A stretch of 64,000 nucleotides of DNA from Botryllus schlosseri (GCA_051294905.1 CM119371.1:2420001-2484000); one strand, 5' to 3'; positions 6,628 through 16,045 are shown, counted from the stretch's first letter. Numbers and translations are program-made. The notes: generated from the letters alone by a model not told the origin.

Positions 6628-7819
6628 CTGAAAACATAATGGCATCAGTTTATCGAAGTGCAGACAGAGTAAACCTGTAAGTCAATCGTAAAGAAAAGCT
6701 ATACAGTCGAATCTGCTCATTTCAGACTCTTTTGTTGCTCTCACTGTTGCCTAAATTAATCGGAAAATCAATTGTCCGCTTCATGGTTGAGAACAAAGGA
6801 GTATATCACATTCTAAAATACAGTACTGTTATGGAATAAATTAATTGCAACTGAGCTATACTGCAGTAATTGTCACATATCGCATAAAACACACATTAGT
6901 TATACTTTGAGGTTAGTTGTATAGTAGCACAATGTATTTTGGATACCAAACCATTCCACAAATACTGTATTATTGTGTAACACAGGCATATATAGGTGTC
7001 GAATTGTACTTTTTGACATCCAACCAACTGTGGAACTGTCAAGCAAGCAGTATACTCCATCATTTCATTTTTTATGCTGGACTTCTTTGTACCAATGTTT
7101 TCTACGAAATTAACTGTGACTAGAACTGACACAGCCTTGCACGAGTTCATTGTTGACTGGTACTGCAGTAGTGCAGTAACTGTAATCACTCGATTTGTTA
7201 TAAAACGAGCGAAGTACTGTTTTTTTGTGCCATAAATAAATTGCGACCCGTTCCGTACATTAATTTAGCGATAAATTCGCTGCTATCCTTTTGATATAAC
7301 AGACTTGGACAAGATAATTCTCGTTGTCAAATTATACTACTTAAAATAAATGCTAGTAATCTAATTCGTCTGTTTCGATCCGCAATTTTAATTGTAATCA
7401 AATTTCTGATTTTCCCGAATACGCTACAGGAGAACTGTACCGTGTGAAACGAATCAAGGTTGGTGTACAGACATTTGTCATTCTCATGCTTATCAGATTG
7501 AGTTCTGCTCTGATATGAAGCGAACACCATTCCATGTCCAAGTTTTTGTGAATTGAGTTATTGCAAGTTCAATCTTAAATGGAAAAAAATTAGTAACTAT
7601 ATCTCTAATTTTAATCTAAGTTGGAAAAGAATGTCTAGGTATAACTCTATTCTTATTTGTAGCTATCAATCTAATTCCAATCAAACTTATAAAAGCCAAA
7701 ATGATCTAGTTGTCCAAATCTGGCTCAGAAAATCCCTGGGTCTATCATGTGAAACCCTGTAAGGAACCACTGCTCTAGGGTAATCACTATGTATGATGAT
7801 AGTTGTGAATCTGACATAC

Positions 7820-7973
7820 CTTCCGTTTTTTAACGGTAACATTTCTTTGGAGGATTGCGAACTCAGAGTCTAGTTGTAGAGAAAAAGCCGTTTGGATTCT
7901 TCAATTTGACCCGTTTTGCTTTTCCATCTTTTCACGTTTCTTCCATTCTATTGCGTTTCAACGGCTCTCGATC
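7820..7973 (-). pseudogene. RBM28: RBM28-like pseudo-exon (linker and RRM4 start), copy A
   Basis: tgtgtag acceptor and gtatgt donor. EWKKREKMEK / KRVKLKNPNGFFSTTRL*VRNPPK matches [21 protein letters not shown]. Frameshifts and a stop. Confidence 0.8.
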
Positions 7974-8034
7974 CTACACAGAAAACCACAAGTGGTGAAT
8001 GTAGTCAGCATCGCAATTTTCTACAAGTGTTGAT

Positions 8035-8375
8035 GGGTGCCTTTATTTTGTACATGCAAGCTAATGAAAAGCTAATGCAGCTAATTAAGCTAAGGAAAAG
8101 CTAATTAAGCTAATGAAAGGCTAATTAAGCTAATGAAAAGCTAAGTAAGCTAATGAAAAGCTAATGAAAAGCTAATTAAGCTAATGAAAAAGTAAGCTAA
8201 TGAAAAGTAAGCTAATGAAAAGCTAATGAAGCTAATTAAGCTAATGAAAAGCTAAGTAAGCTAATGAAAAGCTAATGAAAAGCTAATGAAAAAGTAAGCT
8301 AATGAAAAGTAAGCTAACGAAAAGCTAATGAAACCAGCTAATGTAAAAATGAAGCAAGGAAGTAAGTCCAGATTA
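8035..8375 (+). repeat. Left TIR: unique ~24-bp tip plus tandem array of AAGCTAAT(G/T)A(n) / AAGTAAGCTAATG units
   Basis: Directly visible array; reverse complement of 14022-14547. Confidence 0.95.
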
Positions 8376-8540
8376 GTATTTTGCTCATATGATTCTGGAT
8401 GTATCAAATCCGAAATTTTAAATCCGAGTTTAGAATCTGGATATTCGATTCTCAATAGGGATTTTTGAATTATGATTGCAATAGTGCCAATTCAGACCTA
8501 ACTGCACCCTGCAAACTGGAAGATTTGACGGCACCGACAG

Positions 8541-8801
8541 GTTTGTTTTGGGGTGTTCATGGTGTGTCTCGACTACTATGGTCATGGTCATGGTCATTTA
8601 CACCAAGCAATTTTCTACATTTTTATTCCGTAGCGGCCGACTTGTACAACGGCCCACATTCTTGGCTTTTATAAGACACCGCTTACACGGATGAGATGGC
8701 ACCTAGGTCCTAGGAGGAATTCTGGAGTCGACCTCGGTCGGACTCGAACCCACAACCCATTGGTGTTGCAGCTGTGGATTACACCACTACGTTATCTCGC
8801 C
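8541..8801 (-). mobile_element. tRNA-derived SINE (family A) inside the MULE
   Basis: Minus-strand head GGCGAGATAACGTAGTGG (A box) ... GGTTCGAGTCC (B box). Body tccgtgtaagcggtgtc...gggccg..tacaagtcgg is shared with copies at 18715, 62990 and 9600. Confidence 0.8.
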
Positions 8802-9599
8802 ACTACATACAGCGGTGATCTCTGACGAAGTTTTTCTGCCTGCTCGGTGCTAAAGTGCCAGCACGCCTAACATGATAATGTGGCCGGTTATGTTTGCAAA
8901 CTGAATTTGATAGCGTGAACGAACATGAACATTGAACATCAACGACGTTTCAAAGGGAGTTCATTTCTTGATGGTAATTAGTTAGGAAGGCAAGGAGGAT
9001 TTGAAAACAGCATTGTCTCACAAGCTCCAGCATGCCTGCTATCAATCAACGCATCATACAAAACTGGATTAACCCGTTTCGGCACGCGATATGTCTGGTA
9101 AACCGAATTCGCGTGGATATTGGTTGCGGGCTTGACAGTAATTTTTATTTTACAAATAAACTTCACATCATGATCGACAGATTATAATTTAGATTATTGA
9201 TCGTTTTCTTTAGAACTGAATCATTCTGCGCATAATTTCAAAATTGGGAAGACTTCTTTTTCGTTACCTTTGCGAAACCTAAATGACGTACTAGTGAGAC
9301 ATCGGCACCATTGCCATCCTGATAATGAGCAATGAGTAAACTAACGTTGAAAACGTCCGGATATGTACTACTTTGTAATTGCATATATTTGCTGCGCTGA
9401 ATTGGGATATTCACGTATCATTTTTGCTGTATAATATTTCACAGGGAGGGGCAAGGTATAGCCTATCGACTAGCGAGTCGTAACGCATTCACGCTCGTGA
9501 TCTTTTATTATAATATCCGACAAGAATAATGCTTAGCGCGGAATATACTTGACTAGTTCCGCTTTAATTCGCTTGAATATATTCACAGCTCCGCAGCTG

Positions 9600-9835
9600 T
9601 AAAACGAATTGGTTGGGGGTTCGAATCAGGCCCAAGTCGGTTCCAGTATTCCTACCCAAGTGTTTCTGGTTTAGGGTGTGGGCTTGTACTGCTCGTACGA
9701 TCCGCGTAGACGGTGTCTTGCAAAGGCCCCGACCCATAATAGTAGGTGGATCAGGAACCGTAATAACGAATACCAGCCTGGTGTAAAATGACCAATGACC
9801 ATCCTATAGTAGTAGAAACACCATTAATACCAACC
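9600..9835 (+). mobile_element. Diverged family A-like SINE inside the MULE, upstream of the ORF
   Basis: B-box-like GGTTCGAATCA at ~9618; tccgcgtagacggtgtcttgcaaaggccc and gcctggtgtaaaatgacca...tagtagtagaaacacca resemble the family A body and tail. Confidence 0.6.
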
Positions 9836-10158
9836 TACTACGTTAGTGTGACCACTGATAAGTGTGACTAACTGTCTCTAACATTAATTTTGTAATTCAC
9901 ATATCGATACATTTGTACGTGTACTTGAGGTAGAGCTGCAACGTCACCACGTCACCACAGAGTTAACATGTGTTTATCAAAGAACCTGATTGTGACGTCC
10001 CCTCGCTTCAGAAATTGTGCAAAATTTGCAACTTTCCCCGCGCGGCAGCGCTCGTAGCAATCCCATTGGGGTCATCATTTGAGGTAGCGAAGGACAGTGG
10101 AAAGGATAGCAATTCTCATTGTTTTTTCCGCAACAAGGTTGCGTTTTCGTCTTGGATT

Positions 10159-13134
10159 ATGTCTCATCCTTGTACTGTTTGCGGACTTGATTGTTTAAAG
10201 TCCGACGAGTACGTCGAATGCTACGAATGCAACAGATACTCTCACTGTTCTTGTGCGAAGATCAGTAGCTTCAGTGAGCGGAAAATCCAGATTTTCATAT
10301 GTCGTTGTTGCATATTCTTCGAAGGTGAATTCAATTATGAGTGGGCATTGCAACATATTAGAGCAAATCCGGAACATTGTACAGCTATAAAACGGATACT
10401 TCGTTTGTATAAAGTACTCGAGCCTGATCGGAGCATGCCAAATGAGGCAGCAGTAGGGGATGAGGTTTCACTTATGATTTTGAAGCAGTTTCATTATATC
10501 ATCACCACGGATCACACGGCCTTGCGAGTTGATGGCGATGGGAATTGTTTTTACCGCGCAATGTCGCTTGCCTTATACGGCACTGCGAAACACCACTTGC
10601 GCTTGAGGCTTCTGACCGCGCTCGAAATTATTGAGCATCCGAAATATTATGACGAAGACGCAGAGGGATTTGTTGACCTTATAGCTGACGTTAGAATTGT
10701 GTCATCGCCTTATGCCAGTCTGCTACAAAAAGCAAGCATCCCGGGGCATTGGTCCGAGATGATGCATATTTACGCATTGAGTGCCGCCCTTGGCTCCGCG
10801 ATTCGCTCATACTATCCGTCAACATTGGCAAATGAATACCTGACAGAACCGTTCACGAGCAAATGTTGCGGCCGGGGTGTGTCGAAATTTGCCATACCAG
10901 TTGCGACTCTGATGTGGACACAAACTACCGTGCCCACGACAAGCAATCCGTTTCGACCGAATCACTTCGTGCCAATCATCAAAATCACCGATCTAATTTC
11001 AAGTGATCCAAATAGTTTATGCGAATCAAAACTGAAATCGGAGGATCAGAAAAGCGACATTGATAAGCCGAATGTACGCGAAAAAGACGACATTGACAAG
11101 CCGAATATACGCGAACAAGACGACTTCAAAACGTTTCATAAGAGCGAACTTGGCGATGTGAATGATAATAAACAACCGCATTCGCTCCTAGAAAGCAGTA
11201 TCCCAAGTGAAGATTCGCCTATTGACCAAATGAATGGGGAACAGATGAATTCAGAAATAGGAGAAGTTGCTGACGGAGACAAAACCAAATCAGTTCTACC
11301 TAACCTGAACAATGAGCTGAACAATGAAACGAAGCTGCCCTTTAACGAGTTTTTGAAAATTGAGGATGTGGTGAAAAAAATTATGGATTGTAAAAACGCC
11401 CTTTCGAAGATTCCTCCAGGACGGAAAGACAATTGTTACATTATCGTTGATTTTAAAACAAACATACTTCGAAAGGCTGCTAAAATTCATCGCATATTTT
11501 ATGATGACATGGGAGCTTGGACGAAAACCAAGCAAACATATTCATATTACTTGAAGACCGAGGACCGACTCAGGTATGTATACAAGCCGCGGTGCCACAG
11601 GGGTGCTATTTGTACCCTAAAAATGAAGGAGTACTTGCCGTTATCACCGCAGCCTTCTCCAGGTGACGTACTCATGGTTGGGCGATACTACGCTAAATCA
11701 AAGAACAACCCTGGTTACGAAAAACGTATAAGCTGGATTGAAAGCGGACCATCGGATCCATGTAATGTGTGTATCGTGGAGTACAAGGGTATATCTGGGG
11801 ACTGCAGTCCACACGGAAACAGCTCTGTGAACTTTCAAAATTACATCCGCACTCCGCCCAGCACTATTGAGAAGATAAAGGAAAAGGTTACATACGGGAC
11901 AGGAAAGCGAGTTTACGTTGATCTTCAAAATGATTCCGAAAGTATTTCGCAAATGCCTCGGAATATAAGTCAGATCCACCACACTAAGCACCGGGAAAAA
12001 GTAAGCAAAGAAGGGCACAGTAGCCTGTCGCGAGACTGTTATGCAGACGAACTTTTGGATGTCATAAACATGATGCACACGGAAAAATTTGTGAGAAGAG
12101 TCATCCATTCTCCAGCAAAAGCATCCAGCATAATTGTATACACCGATGATCAAATAACAGATCTTAAAAAGATGTGTTGTACTGGAAAAACTGTACCTGG
12201 AATTGACAAGACATACAACCTAGGCAATGTGTACGCTACTGTAGCAGTTTTCAAAAACGTGAAGATGATTAGCACCAGAACGCAGGAAAATCCGATTTTC
12301 ATTGGTCCCATATATCTCCACCATAGGTCAGATAGAGGGACATTTAACGACTTCTTCAGTCATCTTAGCTCCGTTATAGGAGGTACTTTCGATCACCTTG
12401 TCGTGGGGACAGACGACGAAATTGCGCTACACTCAGCAATAGAAAATTCGTTCAAAAACTGCAAGCACGTTCTCTGTGTCAATCATTTAAAGACAAATTT
12501 GGTCGACAAACTTCAGCACGGCATCGGTGCAAGCAAGCATTTGAGAAAAAGTCTGGTGAATCAAGTCTTCAATCTGTTGGATAGCAAGGACGAAATTGAA
12601 TTTAATCGAAGAGAAGAAGACCTACTCACTAGGTGCCATAGCATATGCCCAATGCTGGTCACATACTTACAAAACAGATTGCTACCGTTGTTGCGAAAAA
12701 AGGTCTGGCAAATGCGTAGCTTTATCGGCGCCGAGCACAAATGGTTCACCAATAACAACTGCGAGAGCATGAACCATGTTCTCAAGCGATTGACAGATTG
12801 GAAAAAGAAAAAGTTACCAGATCTAATTAATCTACTCAAATCAGCGATCACTTCACAATACTTGGATGTACGAAAGAGTATCACAGGCCGTGGTACTTTT
12901 ACCCTTGCTGAGAATTGTAAAAAGTATTTGGTATCTCCTTGGGATTGGGACGACATGCCAAAAGACGAGCAAGACCGTTCATTTCAGCAGTTAATGAATT
13001 TTCCCGCCCCGACAGCCTGTAAGCTGCCAAAATCATTATCACTCTCCACTGATGGGCAATTGATGGCACATAATCCTTCGAAACGAAGTGGCAGCAAGCC
13101 AGGAGGAACCAAATGCAAAAGAAAAGTTCGTTGA
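10159..13134 (+). CDS. PHD finger - OTU (vertnin-like) cysteine protease - MULE DDE transposase fusion, ~991 aa, intronless
   Basis: First ATG at 10159 within the 9970-13134 ORF. PHD C4HC3: CTVC..CYEC..HCSC..CRCC. OTU: VDGDGNCFYRAMS (Cys codon 10546), WSEMMHIYALS, PNHFVPI (His codon 10963). MULE: IDKTYNLG (D 12205), VGTDDEIAL (D 12412), LCVNH (CxxH), TNNNCESMNHVLK (E 12763). Basic NLS-like tail KRKVR. Confidence 0.93.
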   Translation: MSHPCTVCGLDCLKSDEYVECYECNRYSHCSCAKISSFSERKIQIFICRCCIFFEGEFNYEWALQHIRANPEHCTAIKRILRLYKVLEPDRSMPNEAAVGDEVSLMILKQFHYIITTDHTALRVDGDGNCFYRAMSLALYGTAKHHLRLRLLTALEIIEHPKYYDEDAEGFVDLIADVRIVSSPYASLLQKASIPGHWSEMMHIYALSAALGSAIRSYYPSTLANEYLTEPFTSKCCGRGVSKFAIPVATLMWTQTTVPTTSNPFRPNHFVPIIKITDLISSDPNSLCESKLKSEDQKSDIDKPNVREKDDIDKPNIREQDDFKTFHKSELGDVNDNKQPHSLLESSIPSEDSPIDQMNGEQMNSEIGEVADGDKTKSVLPNLNNELNNETKLPFNEFLKIEDVVKKIMDCKNALSKIPPGRKDNCYIIVDFKTNILRKAAKIHRIFYDDMGAWTKTKQTYSYYLKTEDRLRYVYKPRCHRGAICTLKMKEYLPLSPQPSPGDVLMVGRYYAKSKNNPGYEKRISWIESGPSDPCNVCIVEYKGISGDCSPHGNSSVNFQNYIRTPPSTIEKIKEKVTYGTGKRVYVDLQNDSESISQMPRNISQIHHTKHREKVSKEGHSSLSRDCYADELLDVINMMHTEKFVRRVIHSPAKASSIIVYTDDQITDLKKMCCTGKTVPGIDKTYNLGNVYATVAVFKNVKMISTRTQENPIFIGPIYLHHRSDRGTFNDFFSHLSSVIGGTFDHLVVGTDDEIALHSAIENSFKNCKHVLCVNHLKTNLVDKLQHGIGASKHLRKSLVNQVFNLLDSKDEIEFNRREEDLLTRCHSICPMLVTYLQNRLLPLLRKKVWQMRSFIGAEHKWFTNNNCESMNHVLKRLTDWKKKKLPDLINLLKSAITSQYLDVRKSITGRGTFTLAENCKKYLVSPWDWDDMPKDEQDRSFQQLMNFPAPTACKLPKSLSLSTDGQLMAHNPSKRSGSKPGGTKCKRKVR

Positions 13135-14021
13135 GCTGTAACTAAAGAAAATCAAGTTCATAAATGCACTGTACATTTGCAGCAATTGTGCCTATACTGC
13201 CAGCATGAACAGAACATATACAACATGTACAACATTTTCTGTCTGCAAGTACTGAAATCCCTGTCCATATTGGCGTATTTCCTTTCGTTGTCGTAATTTT
13301 CTGCAAGTGAATGCTCAGTTTCGTTTTATATGTTGCTATATTTTTCAATACAGTGTTACGCTTGCTCGTGTTTCAAAACTGAAAATTATCACCCAATGAT
13401 ATGAACAGCAAGGATGAGATGGCGTATTTCGGTTTCTCCCGAATGTGAGGTTGCCTCAACGAACCGGTGATCCGCTAAATGAGTTGACAGATTTTTTCAC
13501 GACGGATTCCTTTTCTGTCGTTATCGTACCTTTTTAACCAGACTGGATATCGGCACTGATGTTACGCGCCTGCGGCTATGGGTTGTCGGGACAGCTATCG
13601 TTTGGTTGAGTAGAGGTTTAACCAGAGCAAACAGTTCGCAGGAGAGAAAAAGTTCTATAACTGGTCTAGTTAAGCAATGTAGGGTCAATATATTTTGTAA
13701 AGAGAAAGCTACGTTTTCATTGGCACAATGTTCAACCTAAAATCGGCGATGTGTAGTGGTTCCAAATATAATAATTTTCATAGTCATTGGGAACGATAAA
13801 GTAGCAACATTTTCATAGTCGTAAATGAGTAGGCCTATATCACGAGTATTTTCAATAATATCGCGAGATAGTACTCGCAGCATAGTTTATTTATAAACGA
13901 GGCTGGCATTGATGTCGGTTAATAATTATTATTTCCAAGATACCAATTCAGCGTCAATCAACAAACGCACACATTTAGCAATTGCAATCAGCGACGTTTT
14001 TCGATGCGTGGTGTTCAATTA

Positions 14022-14547
14022 GCTTCCTTGTTACATTAGCTTCATTAGTTTTTCATTACCTTGTTTCATTAGGTTTTCATTAGCTTTTGATTAGCTTACT
14101 TCTCATTACCTTAATTGCTTTTAATTAGCTTCATTAGCTTTTCATTAGCTTACTTTTCATTAGCTTACTTTTTCATTAGCTTAATTAGCTTTTCATTAGC
14201 TTTTCATTAGCTTACTTAGCTTTTCAGTAGCTTAATTAGCTTCATTAGCTTTTCATTAGCTTACTTTTCATTAGCTTACTTTTTCATTAGCTTAATTAGC
14301 TTTTCATTAGCTTTTCATTAGCTTACTTAGCTTTTCATTAGCTTCATTAGCTTTTCATTAGCTTACTTTTCATTAGCTTACTTTTTCATTAGCTTAATTA
14401 ACTTTTCATTAGCTTACTTAGCTTTTCATTAGCTTACTTAGCTTTTCATTAGCTTAATTAGCCTTTCATTAGCTTAATTAGCTTTTCCTTGGCTTCATTA
14501 GCTGCATTAGCTTTTCATTAGCTTGCATGTACAAAATAAAGGCACCC
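14022..14547 (-). repeat. Right TIR: tandem (CATTAGCTT) array plus unique tip
   Basis: Reverse complement of the left TIR; first ~51 bp identical and ~128 bp with two mismatches; more repeat units than the left arm. Confidence 0.95.
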
Positions 14548-16045
14548 GTGTTGATTGGTTAACCGAAGGTGGCTACTTTCGAAGTACCTTCACTACGAAA
14601 GCAAAATGATTCATGACACCAACACACAATACACAGGTAGAATCTTCATAATATTTAAATCACCTTATCACAGAAGGCTGTAATTCACTGCAATAAGTAA
14701 TGCTACTTACCCCAAAACTACTTTCAACTTTTTAATATTTTAATTGCAAAAGTAAGTATTTTGGTCTGAAAGTATAAAAGTGGAAATAATCTAAAGCAGA
14801 CGAAGTCTACTGTTTCCAGTGTTTAAAATAGAGTCAGATGCCAACAGAGTAGTAATTTTCACAACAGAAAAAAACCTGGAGTTGGAACAGCGAGCATCAA
14901 CTTTCAAAGTTAGTAGATAATAGCTGTAAAAATGAGCCAAAAAGGTTGAGAACCATCAGACAATGTCCAGTCATACGGGAACTAAAAGGTTTGGATGTTA
15001 TGATGATTCATTATGATACAAATGTATCGGAACGTTACTTTGATAAAATGTTTTATTCAAACGTATATTATACCGTACCATGCCATAGACCACATTGCAG
15101 GTCTGCCAAATATAATACAATTTTAAATCTCAATTTCAGAAATGAAACAAGTTGTACGCCAGTTCATAAGTTACTGAATTGAATTGGAAAATTGGAACGA
15201 ATTTTCTGCATCGTGTCATGACAGAGTTCATGACCTACTTTGGACTTGGCATGCATCACAATTCACAATACTGCAATTGCTGTGCTAAACTGTTTCATGG
15301 TAGCCTACCCTACAACTGGTTCAACGATATTTTCATGTGAAACCCAAAGCTGTGACCAAGTCACGAGGTTTCGAGTCACAAGACCAATAAACTGTTAGGC
15401 TATAACTTCGACTCACAATATACTCATTTTTCTCACTCTAAATATGCTTATTCAAACAGATAACATACAGTTTCGTGGCCTATGTTCCAGTTATCATTAT
15501 GCTAATGACATTAGAGACTTAAATATGTCATATAGAATGTGTAGAGTCATAGGAATCGGACGAGTCATTCGCGAAGAATCTAGTACAAGTCGCGTCAATA
15601 CACATATTGACTGGAGTCGAAAAGAGTCATTTTGCGTTTTCAAGACAATAACTTGAGTCAAGTTGAGTTAAACGACAAATTGTGACTGTAGTCATTACAA
15701 CCCTGCCAAAACCTAACAAGACTTGTTGAAAATTGTTATTTTTTTACTGTAATATTTGGAGCCATCTGAGAGTATGATCAAGTCCAACCCACATCAAGGT
15801 TGCAATACCATGAAAATAAATCAAAGATTTAAGCGATTTTAACGGGACCTAATGCCTTACGGTAACTTAAAAATATCAAAATGACACTAGCAACTTATTA
15901 TATGGAACTTTCAGATATCCGTTTTTAAGTTGCACACAACTGCCTTGAATACATGTTGGTATGATTTCTATTTTTGATTACTGGTCTAGAGTACGTCAGC
16001 ACCACAACACTGACAAGATTGAACTGAATATTGGCTCTCAAGTAT

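Follow-up and report, generated by a model that had tools for sequence, protein, structure and literature searches.

A 64-kb stretch of the Botryllus schlosseri genome (GCA_051294905.1 CM119371.1:2420001-2484000; hereafter the window, whose 64,000 nucleotides were analysed and in whose coordinates all positions are given) contains a transposon of 6,513 bp at 8035..14547, bounded at both positions by inverted 27-nt termini (GGGTGCC...). We consider it nearly certain that this is an autonomous, recently amplified cut-and-paste transposon of the Mutator type (Mutator-like element, MULE; IS256-like). Its single, intron-less open reading frame (ORF) encodes, in this order, a PHD finger, an OTU domain, an acidic linker, a beta-rich domain that is a putative DNA-binding domain, and a DDE transposase core (Table 1).

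The ORF begins with ATG and is uninterrupted, its frame being open from position 9967 onward; the 64-kb window has just three stop-to-stop frames of at least 150 amino acids, of which this is one. Inside the element no other ORF of at least 80 amino acids is present, and scans of 7800-14800 with Rfam and for tRNAs (ARAGORN) called nothing. The terminal inverted repeats (TIRs) have lengths of ~310-510 bp. Their terminal 130 nt (8035-8164 and 14418-14547) are complementary at 98%, and they contain tandem copies of an 11-bp unit, AAGCTAATGAA, numbering ~28 in the left TIR and more in the right one, which are presumably arrays of transposase-binding sites. Long TIRs and target-site duplications (TSDs) of ~8-11 bp are features of the Mutator superfamily. 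The initial annotation of this locus had described one chain combining a C4HC3 PHD finger, an OTU domain with intact catalytic boxes, a low-complexity linker and a complete MULE core within a young element with a perfect TSD, and each of these parts was recovered: all eight PHD ligands, the OTU boxes D127-G128-N129-C130 and N268-H269-F270 within a modelled OTU fold, the linker, the D-D-CxxH-E residues D683, D752, C773xxH776 and E869, and perfect 8-bp TSDs at 6/6 full copies.

Table 1. Features of the transposon, in window coordinates
Feature	Position	Strand	Basis
Left TSD, GTGTTGAT	8027..8034	.	end analysis, copy comparison
Left TIR: 27-nt terminus, then ~28 copies of the 11-bp unit AAGCTAATGAA	8035..8347	+	
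5' non-coding part of the element	8348..10158	+	no ORF of at least 80 amino acids
ORF of 991 amino acids with its stop codon, encoding the transposase and its N-terminal PHD-OTU module	10159..13134	+	
PHD-type C4HC3 zinc finger, residues 5-51	10171..10311	+	ligands, Pfam, family profile
OTU cysteine-protease fold, residues ~111-275, with D127-G-N-C130 and N268-H269-F270	10489..10983	+	Pfam, AF2, alignments
Acidic low-complexity linker, residues 276-397	10984..11349	+	sequence, dN/dS
Conserved beta-rich putative DNA-binding domain, residues 398-563, possibly WRKY-GCM1-like	11350..11847	+	
IS256/Mutator-type DDE core with all-alpha insertion, residues ~641-913	12079..12897	+	alignment, model
Basic C-terminal tail, KRSGSKPGGTKCKRKVR	13081..13131	+	
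Right TIR: arrays of the 11-bp unit AAGCTAATGAA, then 27-nt terminus	14034..14547	-	
Right TSD, GTGTTGAT	14548..14555	.	end analysis, copy comparison

Copies in the genome and transcripts

The genome assembly (495.5 Mb, 219 contigs) was searched for copies of the element. Subfamily A consists of six full-length copies with 99-100% identity, all of which retain the intact 991-amino-acid ORF; they have common termini, lie at unrelated sites, and each is flanked by a perfect 8-bp TSD of its own. Their lengths range from 6,513 to 6,840 bp, the difference lying in the repeat arrays. Four copies differ from one another by 1-2 nt in 2,973, and the window copy differs from the others by 20-22 nt (11-12 synonymous and 9-10 non-synonymous codons). 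Near-identical, intact copies with clean ends suggest recent or current activity. A second subfamily, B, with ~86% identity, has an intact ORF of 977 amino acids in three of the five copies fetched. The TSD was 8 bp in all seven elements examined (six of subfamily A, one of subfamily B). Genome-wide, the terminal 27-mer was found 96 times in forward and 100 times in reverse orientation (~196 termini), against 0 for the reversed control. Many terminus pairs are only 2-5 kb apart, e.g. C1:22231968-22234453, C1:29950505-29953420 and C1:38846246-38848411, which indicates non-autonomous, likely internally deleted derivatives. A contig end in the sequencing runs X1 and X3, which joins window position 9904 directly to TIR repeats, is consistent with derivatives of this kind. 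One subfamily B copy (L018, C7:16374879-16383812) has TIRs and an 8-bp TSD and shares its first 17 terminal nt with subfamily A; its subterminal repeat unit is a different one (AAACTTATGAAAA-like), suggesting that the transposase and its presumed binding sites have diverged together.

Transcript reads came from ~3% of the single-cell RNA run X23; they may stem from any copy. Runs X1, X3 and X7, which are only presumed to be RNA and extend over non-coding parts as well, were left out as transcript evidence. The X23 portion yielded 149 reads on the stretch at an identity of at least 97%, with a depth of at most 3 over the ORF, where the reads are mostly sense if the library follows the usual convention. 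The single chain of the initial annotation would be undone by transcripts that splice its domains apart; the X23 reads show no splice joint within the ORF, though their depth is too thin either to exclude splicing or to establish expression. The densest reads (depth ~8-11) lie at 13314-13691, just 3' of the stop codon, and run in the opposite direction to most ORF reads; they may represent an antisense transcript or read-in from the right TIR.

The PHD finger and the OTU domain

The ligands of the PHD finger follow the canonical C4HC3 spacing (C5-x2-C8-x12-C21-x2-C24-x4-H29-x2-C32-x15-C48-x2-C51), and all eight are kept in the ~86% subfamily. Among 19 aligned relatives, five match the Pfam PHD profile at E<=0.01, the best at 5.3e-6, and the weak match of the window copy covers the full profile (1-47). 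To relate the finger to solved structures, a family profile was built from 12 PHD-bearing relatives. It matched PHD fingers of Pygopus 2 (3.8e-10) and MLL1 (PHD3, 8e-8), with further matches to DIDO1, BPTF, PHF2, KMT2C/D, CFP1 and TAF3, and a weak match to the solved RAG2 PHD chain (E 0.006). Most of the fingers matched by the profile we take to be readers of methylated H3K4.

For the OTU domain, the Pfam match (PF02338) is marginal in the window copy, scoring 23.6 bits over the whole protein and 25.7 bits over residues 1-284 at a cut-off of 23.3, and extends to 17 of the 19 aligned relatives. From 36 sequences, AlphaFold2 (AF2) modelled residues 1-290 with a pLDDT of 89.9 and a pTM of 0.88, and the model matched 38 chains of the PDB at E<=1e-3. 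Among these are OTUD1 (E 8e-6, TM 0.71 on target), OTUD3 (TM 0.73), Cezanne, VCPIP1, DUBA, A20, and viral OTUs including those of nairoviruses. A look-up in the ESM Atlas with the same residues gave no usable match. The Cys box of the domain aligns with the Cys box of OTUD1. C130 and H269 are invariant in 19 aligned sequences, and among the 89 OTU-bearing relatives described below the catalytic Cys is kept in 76 (with 11 gaps and 2 substitutions) and the catalytic His in 85. The column of N268, which precedes H269, is Asn in 70 of these 89 and Asp in 14.

The OTU domain had initially been likened to that of vertnin, with a possible bearing on the origin of the latter. Vertnin (VRTN) has been reported to contain an OTU-like papain fold and to be an inactive homologue without catalytic residues (PMC10318531). 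The fold reported for it resembles that of the element, whose OTU domain retains the catalytic residues that vertnin is reported to be without. A homology search with the OTU domain only returned seven proteins, all of them family members and none a vertnin, and no vertnin sequence was present among the homology-search matches filtered by name. The literature searched likewise gave no paper that derives vertnin from a transposon. The sole link is that a rotifer Helitron-OTU protein which matches the family profile is labelled 'Vertnin' in UniRef.

Linker, DNA-binding domain and transposase core

The linker is rich in D, S, N, E and K and includes a 33-bp tandem repeat of 2.3 copies (11050-11124), which encodes DIDKPNVREKD/DIDKPNIREQD. 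As the ~86% subfamily has one repeat unit fewer, visible as an 11-amino-acid gap, the length of the linker evolves by repeat slippage. The part of the protein that follows was modelled with AF2 (residues 394-991, 45 sequences, pLDDT 88.1). In VIA-align comparisons, the beta-rich domain gave middling scores with the GCM domain (Z 7.4, root-mean-square deviation (rmsd) 3.2, 100 residues aligned) and with the NAC domain (Z 6.2), and no conserved set of zinc ligands is obvious in its alignment. A DNA-binding domain of the WRKY-GCM1 type, located N-terminal to the core, has been described for MULE transposases (Babu et al. 2006, PMC1702500); the model of the beta-rich domain is consistent with this type, a likeness that is only suggestive.

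In the core, an alignment of 45 sequences shows D683, D752, C773, H776 and E869 to be invariant or nearly so. Of the 19 relatives, 13 match Pfam MULE (best 6.8e-8) and seven match Transposase_mut (best 5.1e-8) at E<=0.01; with Transposase_mut (PF00872) the window copy itself scores 15.4 bits at a cut-off of 21. The core model is closest to the transposase of ISCth4, an IS256-family member (Foldseek E 6.7e-7; VIA-align Z 13.3, rmsd 5.0, 235 residues aligned), the next chain being Hermes with a Z of 10.1. The basic tail KRSGSKPGGTKCKRKVR at the C-terminus may serve as a nuclear-localisation signal.

Distribution and conservation of the PHD-OTU module

A HMMER scan of 1.84 billion representative proteins gave 4,024 matches at E<=1e-3 and 378 at E<=1e-30. 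Full-length members were found in Branchiostoma floridae, Styela clava, Pinctada imbricata and Lingula anatina, and one truncated member in Ciona intestinalis. The amphioxus, tunicate, bivalve and brachiopod members have identities of 25-35% and are annotated as uncharacterized or hypothetical proteins. With purpose-built sub-profiles, the domains of 175 retrieved relatives, many of them from short contigs, were assigned. The complete series of PHD, OTU, DNA-binding domain and MULE core was detected in 21 of the 175, and OTU, DNA-binding domain and core in 41; these counts speak for a module that is kept, where relatives devoid of the N-terminal domains would have spoken against the initial annotation. 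The other relatives have the DNA-binding domain and core (59), the core only (27), OTU and DNA-binding domain (16), OTU only (8), PHD, OTU and DNA-binding domain (2), or PHD and OTU (1). In a FastTree phylogeny of the 71 proteins with complete DNA-binding domain and core, 44 with and 27 without OTU, both PHD and OTU are present on both halves of the tree, and the OTU-less rows are not clustered (22 changes, compared with a shuffled mean of 21.8). The OTU-less relative P0077 starts exactly behind the His box of an OTU-bearing sister with 66% identity; hence, at least some of the OTU absences are truncated calls.

Selection on the domains was estimated from the ratio of non-synonymous to synonymous substitution rates (dN/dS, Nei-Gojobori) between the window copy and three subfamily B copies, at a dS of ~0.35-0.38. 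Copies L007 and L012, with broken ORFs of 814 and 793 amino acids, and L011, with a differing start codon and an undefined correction, were left out. For the whole ORF a dN/dS of 0.22 was obtained. The lowest values were those of the DDE core (0.13-0.15) and the OTU domain (0.16-0.17), followed by residues 401-640 (~0.20), the PHD finger (0.30-0.37) and the linker (0.61-0.64). The OTU domain is thus constrained as strongly as the catalytic core, and the N-terminal module, rather than evolving neutrally, is under purifying selection. From these sequence comparisons we conclude that the predicted PHD-OTU module is ancestral to the MULE lineage and has been kept by selection, and that it is not a recent capture.

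Three of the retrieved proteins stand apart. P0003, an OTU-MULE member, is filed as a hypothetical protein of a Sedimenticola sp. metagenome-assembled genome (MAG); its contig, of 4.6 kb, most probably stems from an animal host and was assigned to the bacterial MAG as a contaminant. In P0008 (1,233 amino acids), the PHD and OTU domains of the family are joined to a long, repetitive C-terminal region that is not a transposase; it may be a domesticated or recombined form. P0175 (520 amino acids) is a Macro-domain protein (Pfam E 3e-23) with a partial match to the family profile (E 2.3e-19), covering 12% of the query.

Possible role of the module in transposition

The 'reader-eraser' function proposed for the fusion in the initial annotation is plausible as a hypothesis; in it, the PHD finger would read a histone mark and the OTU domain would strip ubiquitin from H2A, H2B or the transposase. 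In the mechanism that we envisage, the OTU domain would act in trans as a deubiquitinase or ubiquitin-like-protein (UBL) isopeptidase and would be brought to the site of transposition by the transposase itself, while the PHD finger would tether the protein to chromatin, probably through a methyl-lysine state of the H3 tail as read by its nearest solved relatives. The element could gain from this by a stabilised transposase or by the stabilisation of repair or chromatin factors that it needs; alternatively, repressive or degradative ubiquitin might be removed locally. As a functional precedent, the VTD deubiquitinase of Helentrons comes closest, an active transposon-borne enzyme, though of another class than OTU, for which activity on K48, K63 and K11 chains has been reported (PMC9741609). 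We give slightly less than an even chance to the joint proposition that the OTU domain is a competent trans-acting deubiquitinase or UBL isopeptidase, that the PHD finger is a chromatin tether, and that both aid transposition. The overall reading, of which this function forms a part, is somewhat favoured.

Several observations weigh against this reading. Of the expected Pfam domains only OTU exceeds its cut-off in the window copy: the PHD match (PF00628) stays below threshold with 12.6 bits and an E of 0.15 against a cut-off of 24 bits, as does the MULE match (PF10551) with 21.2 against 27.6 bits. At the position two residues before the His ligand of the PHD finger, which we assume to be an aromatic-cage site for histone-tail binding, the window copy has Tyr27, while most relatives have Trp. 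Only two of the three catalytic residues of the OTU domain, Cys130 and His269, could be assigned. No OTU is detectable in 27 of the 71 relatives with complete DNA-binding domain and core, of which a single one proved to be truncated, so that lineages genuinely devoid of OTU may exist. All three dN/dS comparisons rest on a common split between subfamilies A and B and hence are not independent, and the higher ratio of the PHD finger derives from only ~17 substitutions. As of 2022, transposon OTU domains were described as unassayed for activity (PMC9741609).

The OTU domain could instead be mainly a cis-acting processing protease, which cuts at the boundary of linker and DNA-binding domain and thereby releases a PHD-OTU protein and a separate transposase. 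Ubiquitin-type proteases cleave after Gly-Gly, and the OTU-type proteases of arteriviruses and nairoviruses process viral polyproteins. A Gly-Gly pair occurs within the last 40 linker residues in 18 of the 80 relatives that have both OTU and DNA-binding domain; in 14 of the 80 it is fixed 9-11 residues before the start of the DNA-binding-domain profile ('A-x-G-G | x-x-L-P-x-x-x-F-L'), and many other relatives have a single Gly at this place. Polyprotein processing has also been suggested for the MULE-protease fusions of Medicago (Babu et al., PMC1702500). However, Gly-Gly is absent in 62 of the 80, and a conserved Gly could simply cap the DNA-binding domain. The window copy and the 86% subfamily have no Gly there (NN-ETK or NITK before LPFNEFL), yet their OTU domain is strongly constrained. 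Because Gly-Gly is absent from the window copy and its sister subfamily, self-processing ranks second for this element, and we regard it as unlikely. Carriers of the pair include P0007, P0009, P0011, P0012, P0015, P0018, P0019, P0023, P0061, P0101, P0113, P0142 and P0164, and the equivalent place in the window copy is at ~11323-11349.

MULEs are known to capture host fragments, as in Pack-MULEs (PMC6431247), and the module could in principle be such a passenger, or a relic in decay, that does nothing for the element; the 27 OTU-less relatives among the 71 with a complete core would fit. The low dN/dS of the OTU domain and the retention of its catalytic Cys (76/89) and His (85/89) argue against this, as do the OTU-bearing rows on both halves of the core tree and a domain order that is common to deuterostome and lophotrochozoan hosts at 25-35% identity, which together make a passenger very improbable. 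Still less credible is a domesticated host gene, i.e. a transposase-derived chromatin factor that is no longer mobile. Several genomes list relatives as ordinary genes ('uncharacterized protein LOC...'), and P0008 joins PHD and OTU to a non-transposase tail, but for the window locus domestication is refuted by the intact TIRs and TSD, the six near-identical copies each with its own TSD, and the ~196 termini.

A more far-reaching proposal, to which we assign a low probability, is that PHD and OTU form a portable reader-deubiquitinase cassette, exchanged among the unrelated Mutator, Helitron and Ginger1 superfamilies, which in the present MULE lineage would couple the recognition of a histone mark of active chromatin to the local removal of ubiquitin; such cassettes could also have given rise to host genes such as vertnin. 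If true, the element would choose its targets and at the same time disarm a ubiquitin-based restraint imposed by the host; the ubiquitin removed might be that on H2A or H2B, on repair factors, or on the transposase itself.

Relation to known elements

RAG1/RAG2 is a DDE enzyme derived from a Transib transposase, in which the PHD finger of RAG2 reads a histone mark and couples cleavage to the state of chromatin. The coupling of a transposase-derived DDE enzyme to a PHD finger is common to RAG and the element described here; however, RAG belongs to another superfamily, has its PHD finger on a separate subunit and no protease, and is not a member of this family.

Pairwise combinations of the domains have precedents among transposons. 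Ginger1 elements are likewise cut-and-paste elements of invertebrates (hydra, Aplysia, aphid and amphioxus) with a transposase fused to OTU or Ulp1, in one family together with a PHD finger, and it has been proposed that the ubiquitin/SUMO pathway plays a part in their transposition (Bao, Kapitonov and Jurka 2010, PMC2836005). They differ in that their core is integrase-like (Gypsy-type) rather than of the Mutator type, their protease is C-terminal rather than N-terminal, and their PHD finger is paired with Ulp1 and not with OTU (PMC2836005). Helitrons of animals have been described as carrying OTU domains, and MULEs of plants, hydra and lancelet as carrying Ulp1 (PMC2836005). The OTU domains of Helitrons and Helentrons are, like the present one, of the type associated with transposable elements, in contrast to the elements themselves, which are described as rolling-circle transposons with Rep/helicase and without DDE transposase, TIRs or TSD (PMC6431247, PMC9741609). 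The rotifer Helitron protein P0174 matches the family profile (E 6.6e-26) and aligns over the whole OTU domain with 24% identity (184 amino acids, E 6e-7), GDGNC and RPNHFVP being common to both; a domain scan of P0174 showed no PHD finger.

Among MULEs with an accessory protease, which likewise join a Mutator DDE transposase to a papain-like protease of the ubiquitin/UBL type (PMC2836005, PMC1702500), the Medicago transposases have a C-terminal protease of the OTU superfamily, and MULE-type transposases of Ciona and C. elegans have a C-terminal PHD finger (PMC1702500). By comparison with these descriptions only, the window element differs in that a canonical, N-terminal OTU domain stands behind a PHD finger in one ORF of an animal. 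Rehavkus, a MULE-related group known only from Repbase and with invertebrate hosts, is described as having, like the element, a PHD finger in its transposase, long TIRs (26-400 bp), a minisatellite-like tandem array near one end and a single ORF (PMC6446971). Its TSD is 9 bp, in contrast to 8 bp in 7/7 elements of the window family, its minisatellite lies before the 3' TIR instead of inside both TIRs, and no OTU domain is reported in the accessible portion of its description (PMC6446971). The PHD finger of the window element is N-terminal, and its tandem 11-bp arrays lie in both TIRs. An assignment to Rehavkus, which could be compared by description only, was rejected because of the TSD lengths.

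Novelty, on which the initial annotation had reserved judgement, thus does not extend to the pairings of the domains (PMC2836005, PMC1702500, PMC6446971). No description of the full PHD-OTU-MULE architecture was found in the literature searched; a named family may exist in Repbase or Dfam. The difference lies in the combination and order, i.e. an N-terminal PHD finger, a canonical OTU domain and a Mutator transposase in one animal ORF, together with an 8-bp TSD.

Proteases of the ubiquitin/UBL type recur across transposon superfamilies: MULEs and Ginger1 elements both have Ulp1, Ginger1 elements and Helitrons have OTU, and Helentrons have VTD. With its intron-less ORF, six intact near-identical copies, a sister subfamily and many distant relatives, the present family is a tractable test case for what such proteases do, and the catalytic Cys and His are clear targets for mutation. 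If the PHD finger directs integration or activity by chromatin state, the family would be a counterpart, among transposons, of the PHD-guided RAG recombinase. In practical terms, it is widespread yet unnamed in the annotations of marine invertebrates (amphioxus, tunicate, bivalve and brachiopod).

A further observation concerns the 5' non-coding part of the element, where a tRNA-like stretch is located at ~8660-8790, with a T-arm-like GGTTCGAGTCC on the minus strand. In sequencing runs, 8660-8790 shows a very high read depth together with numerous loose ends, as would be expected of a segment of a high-copy repeat resembling a short interspersed element (SINE).

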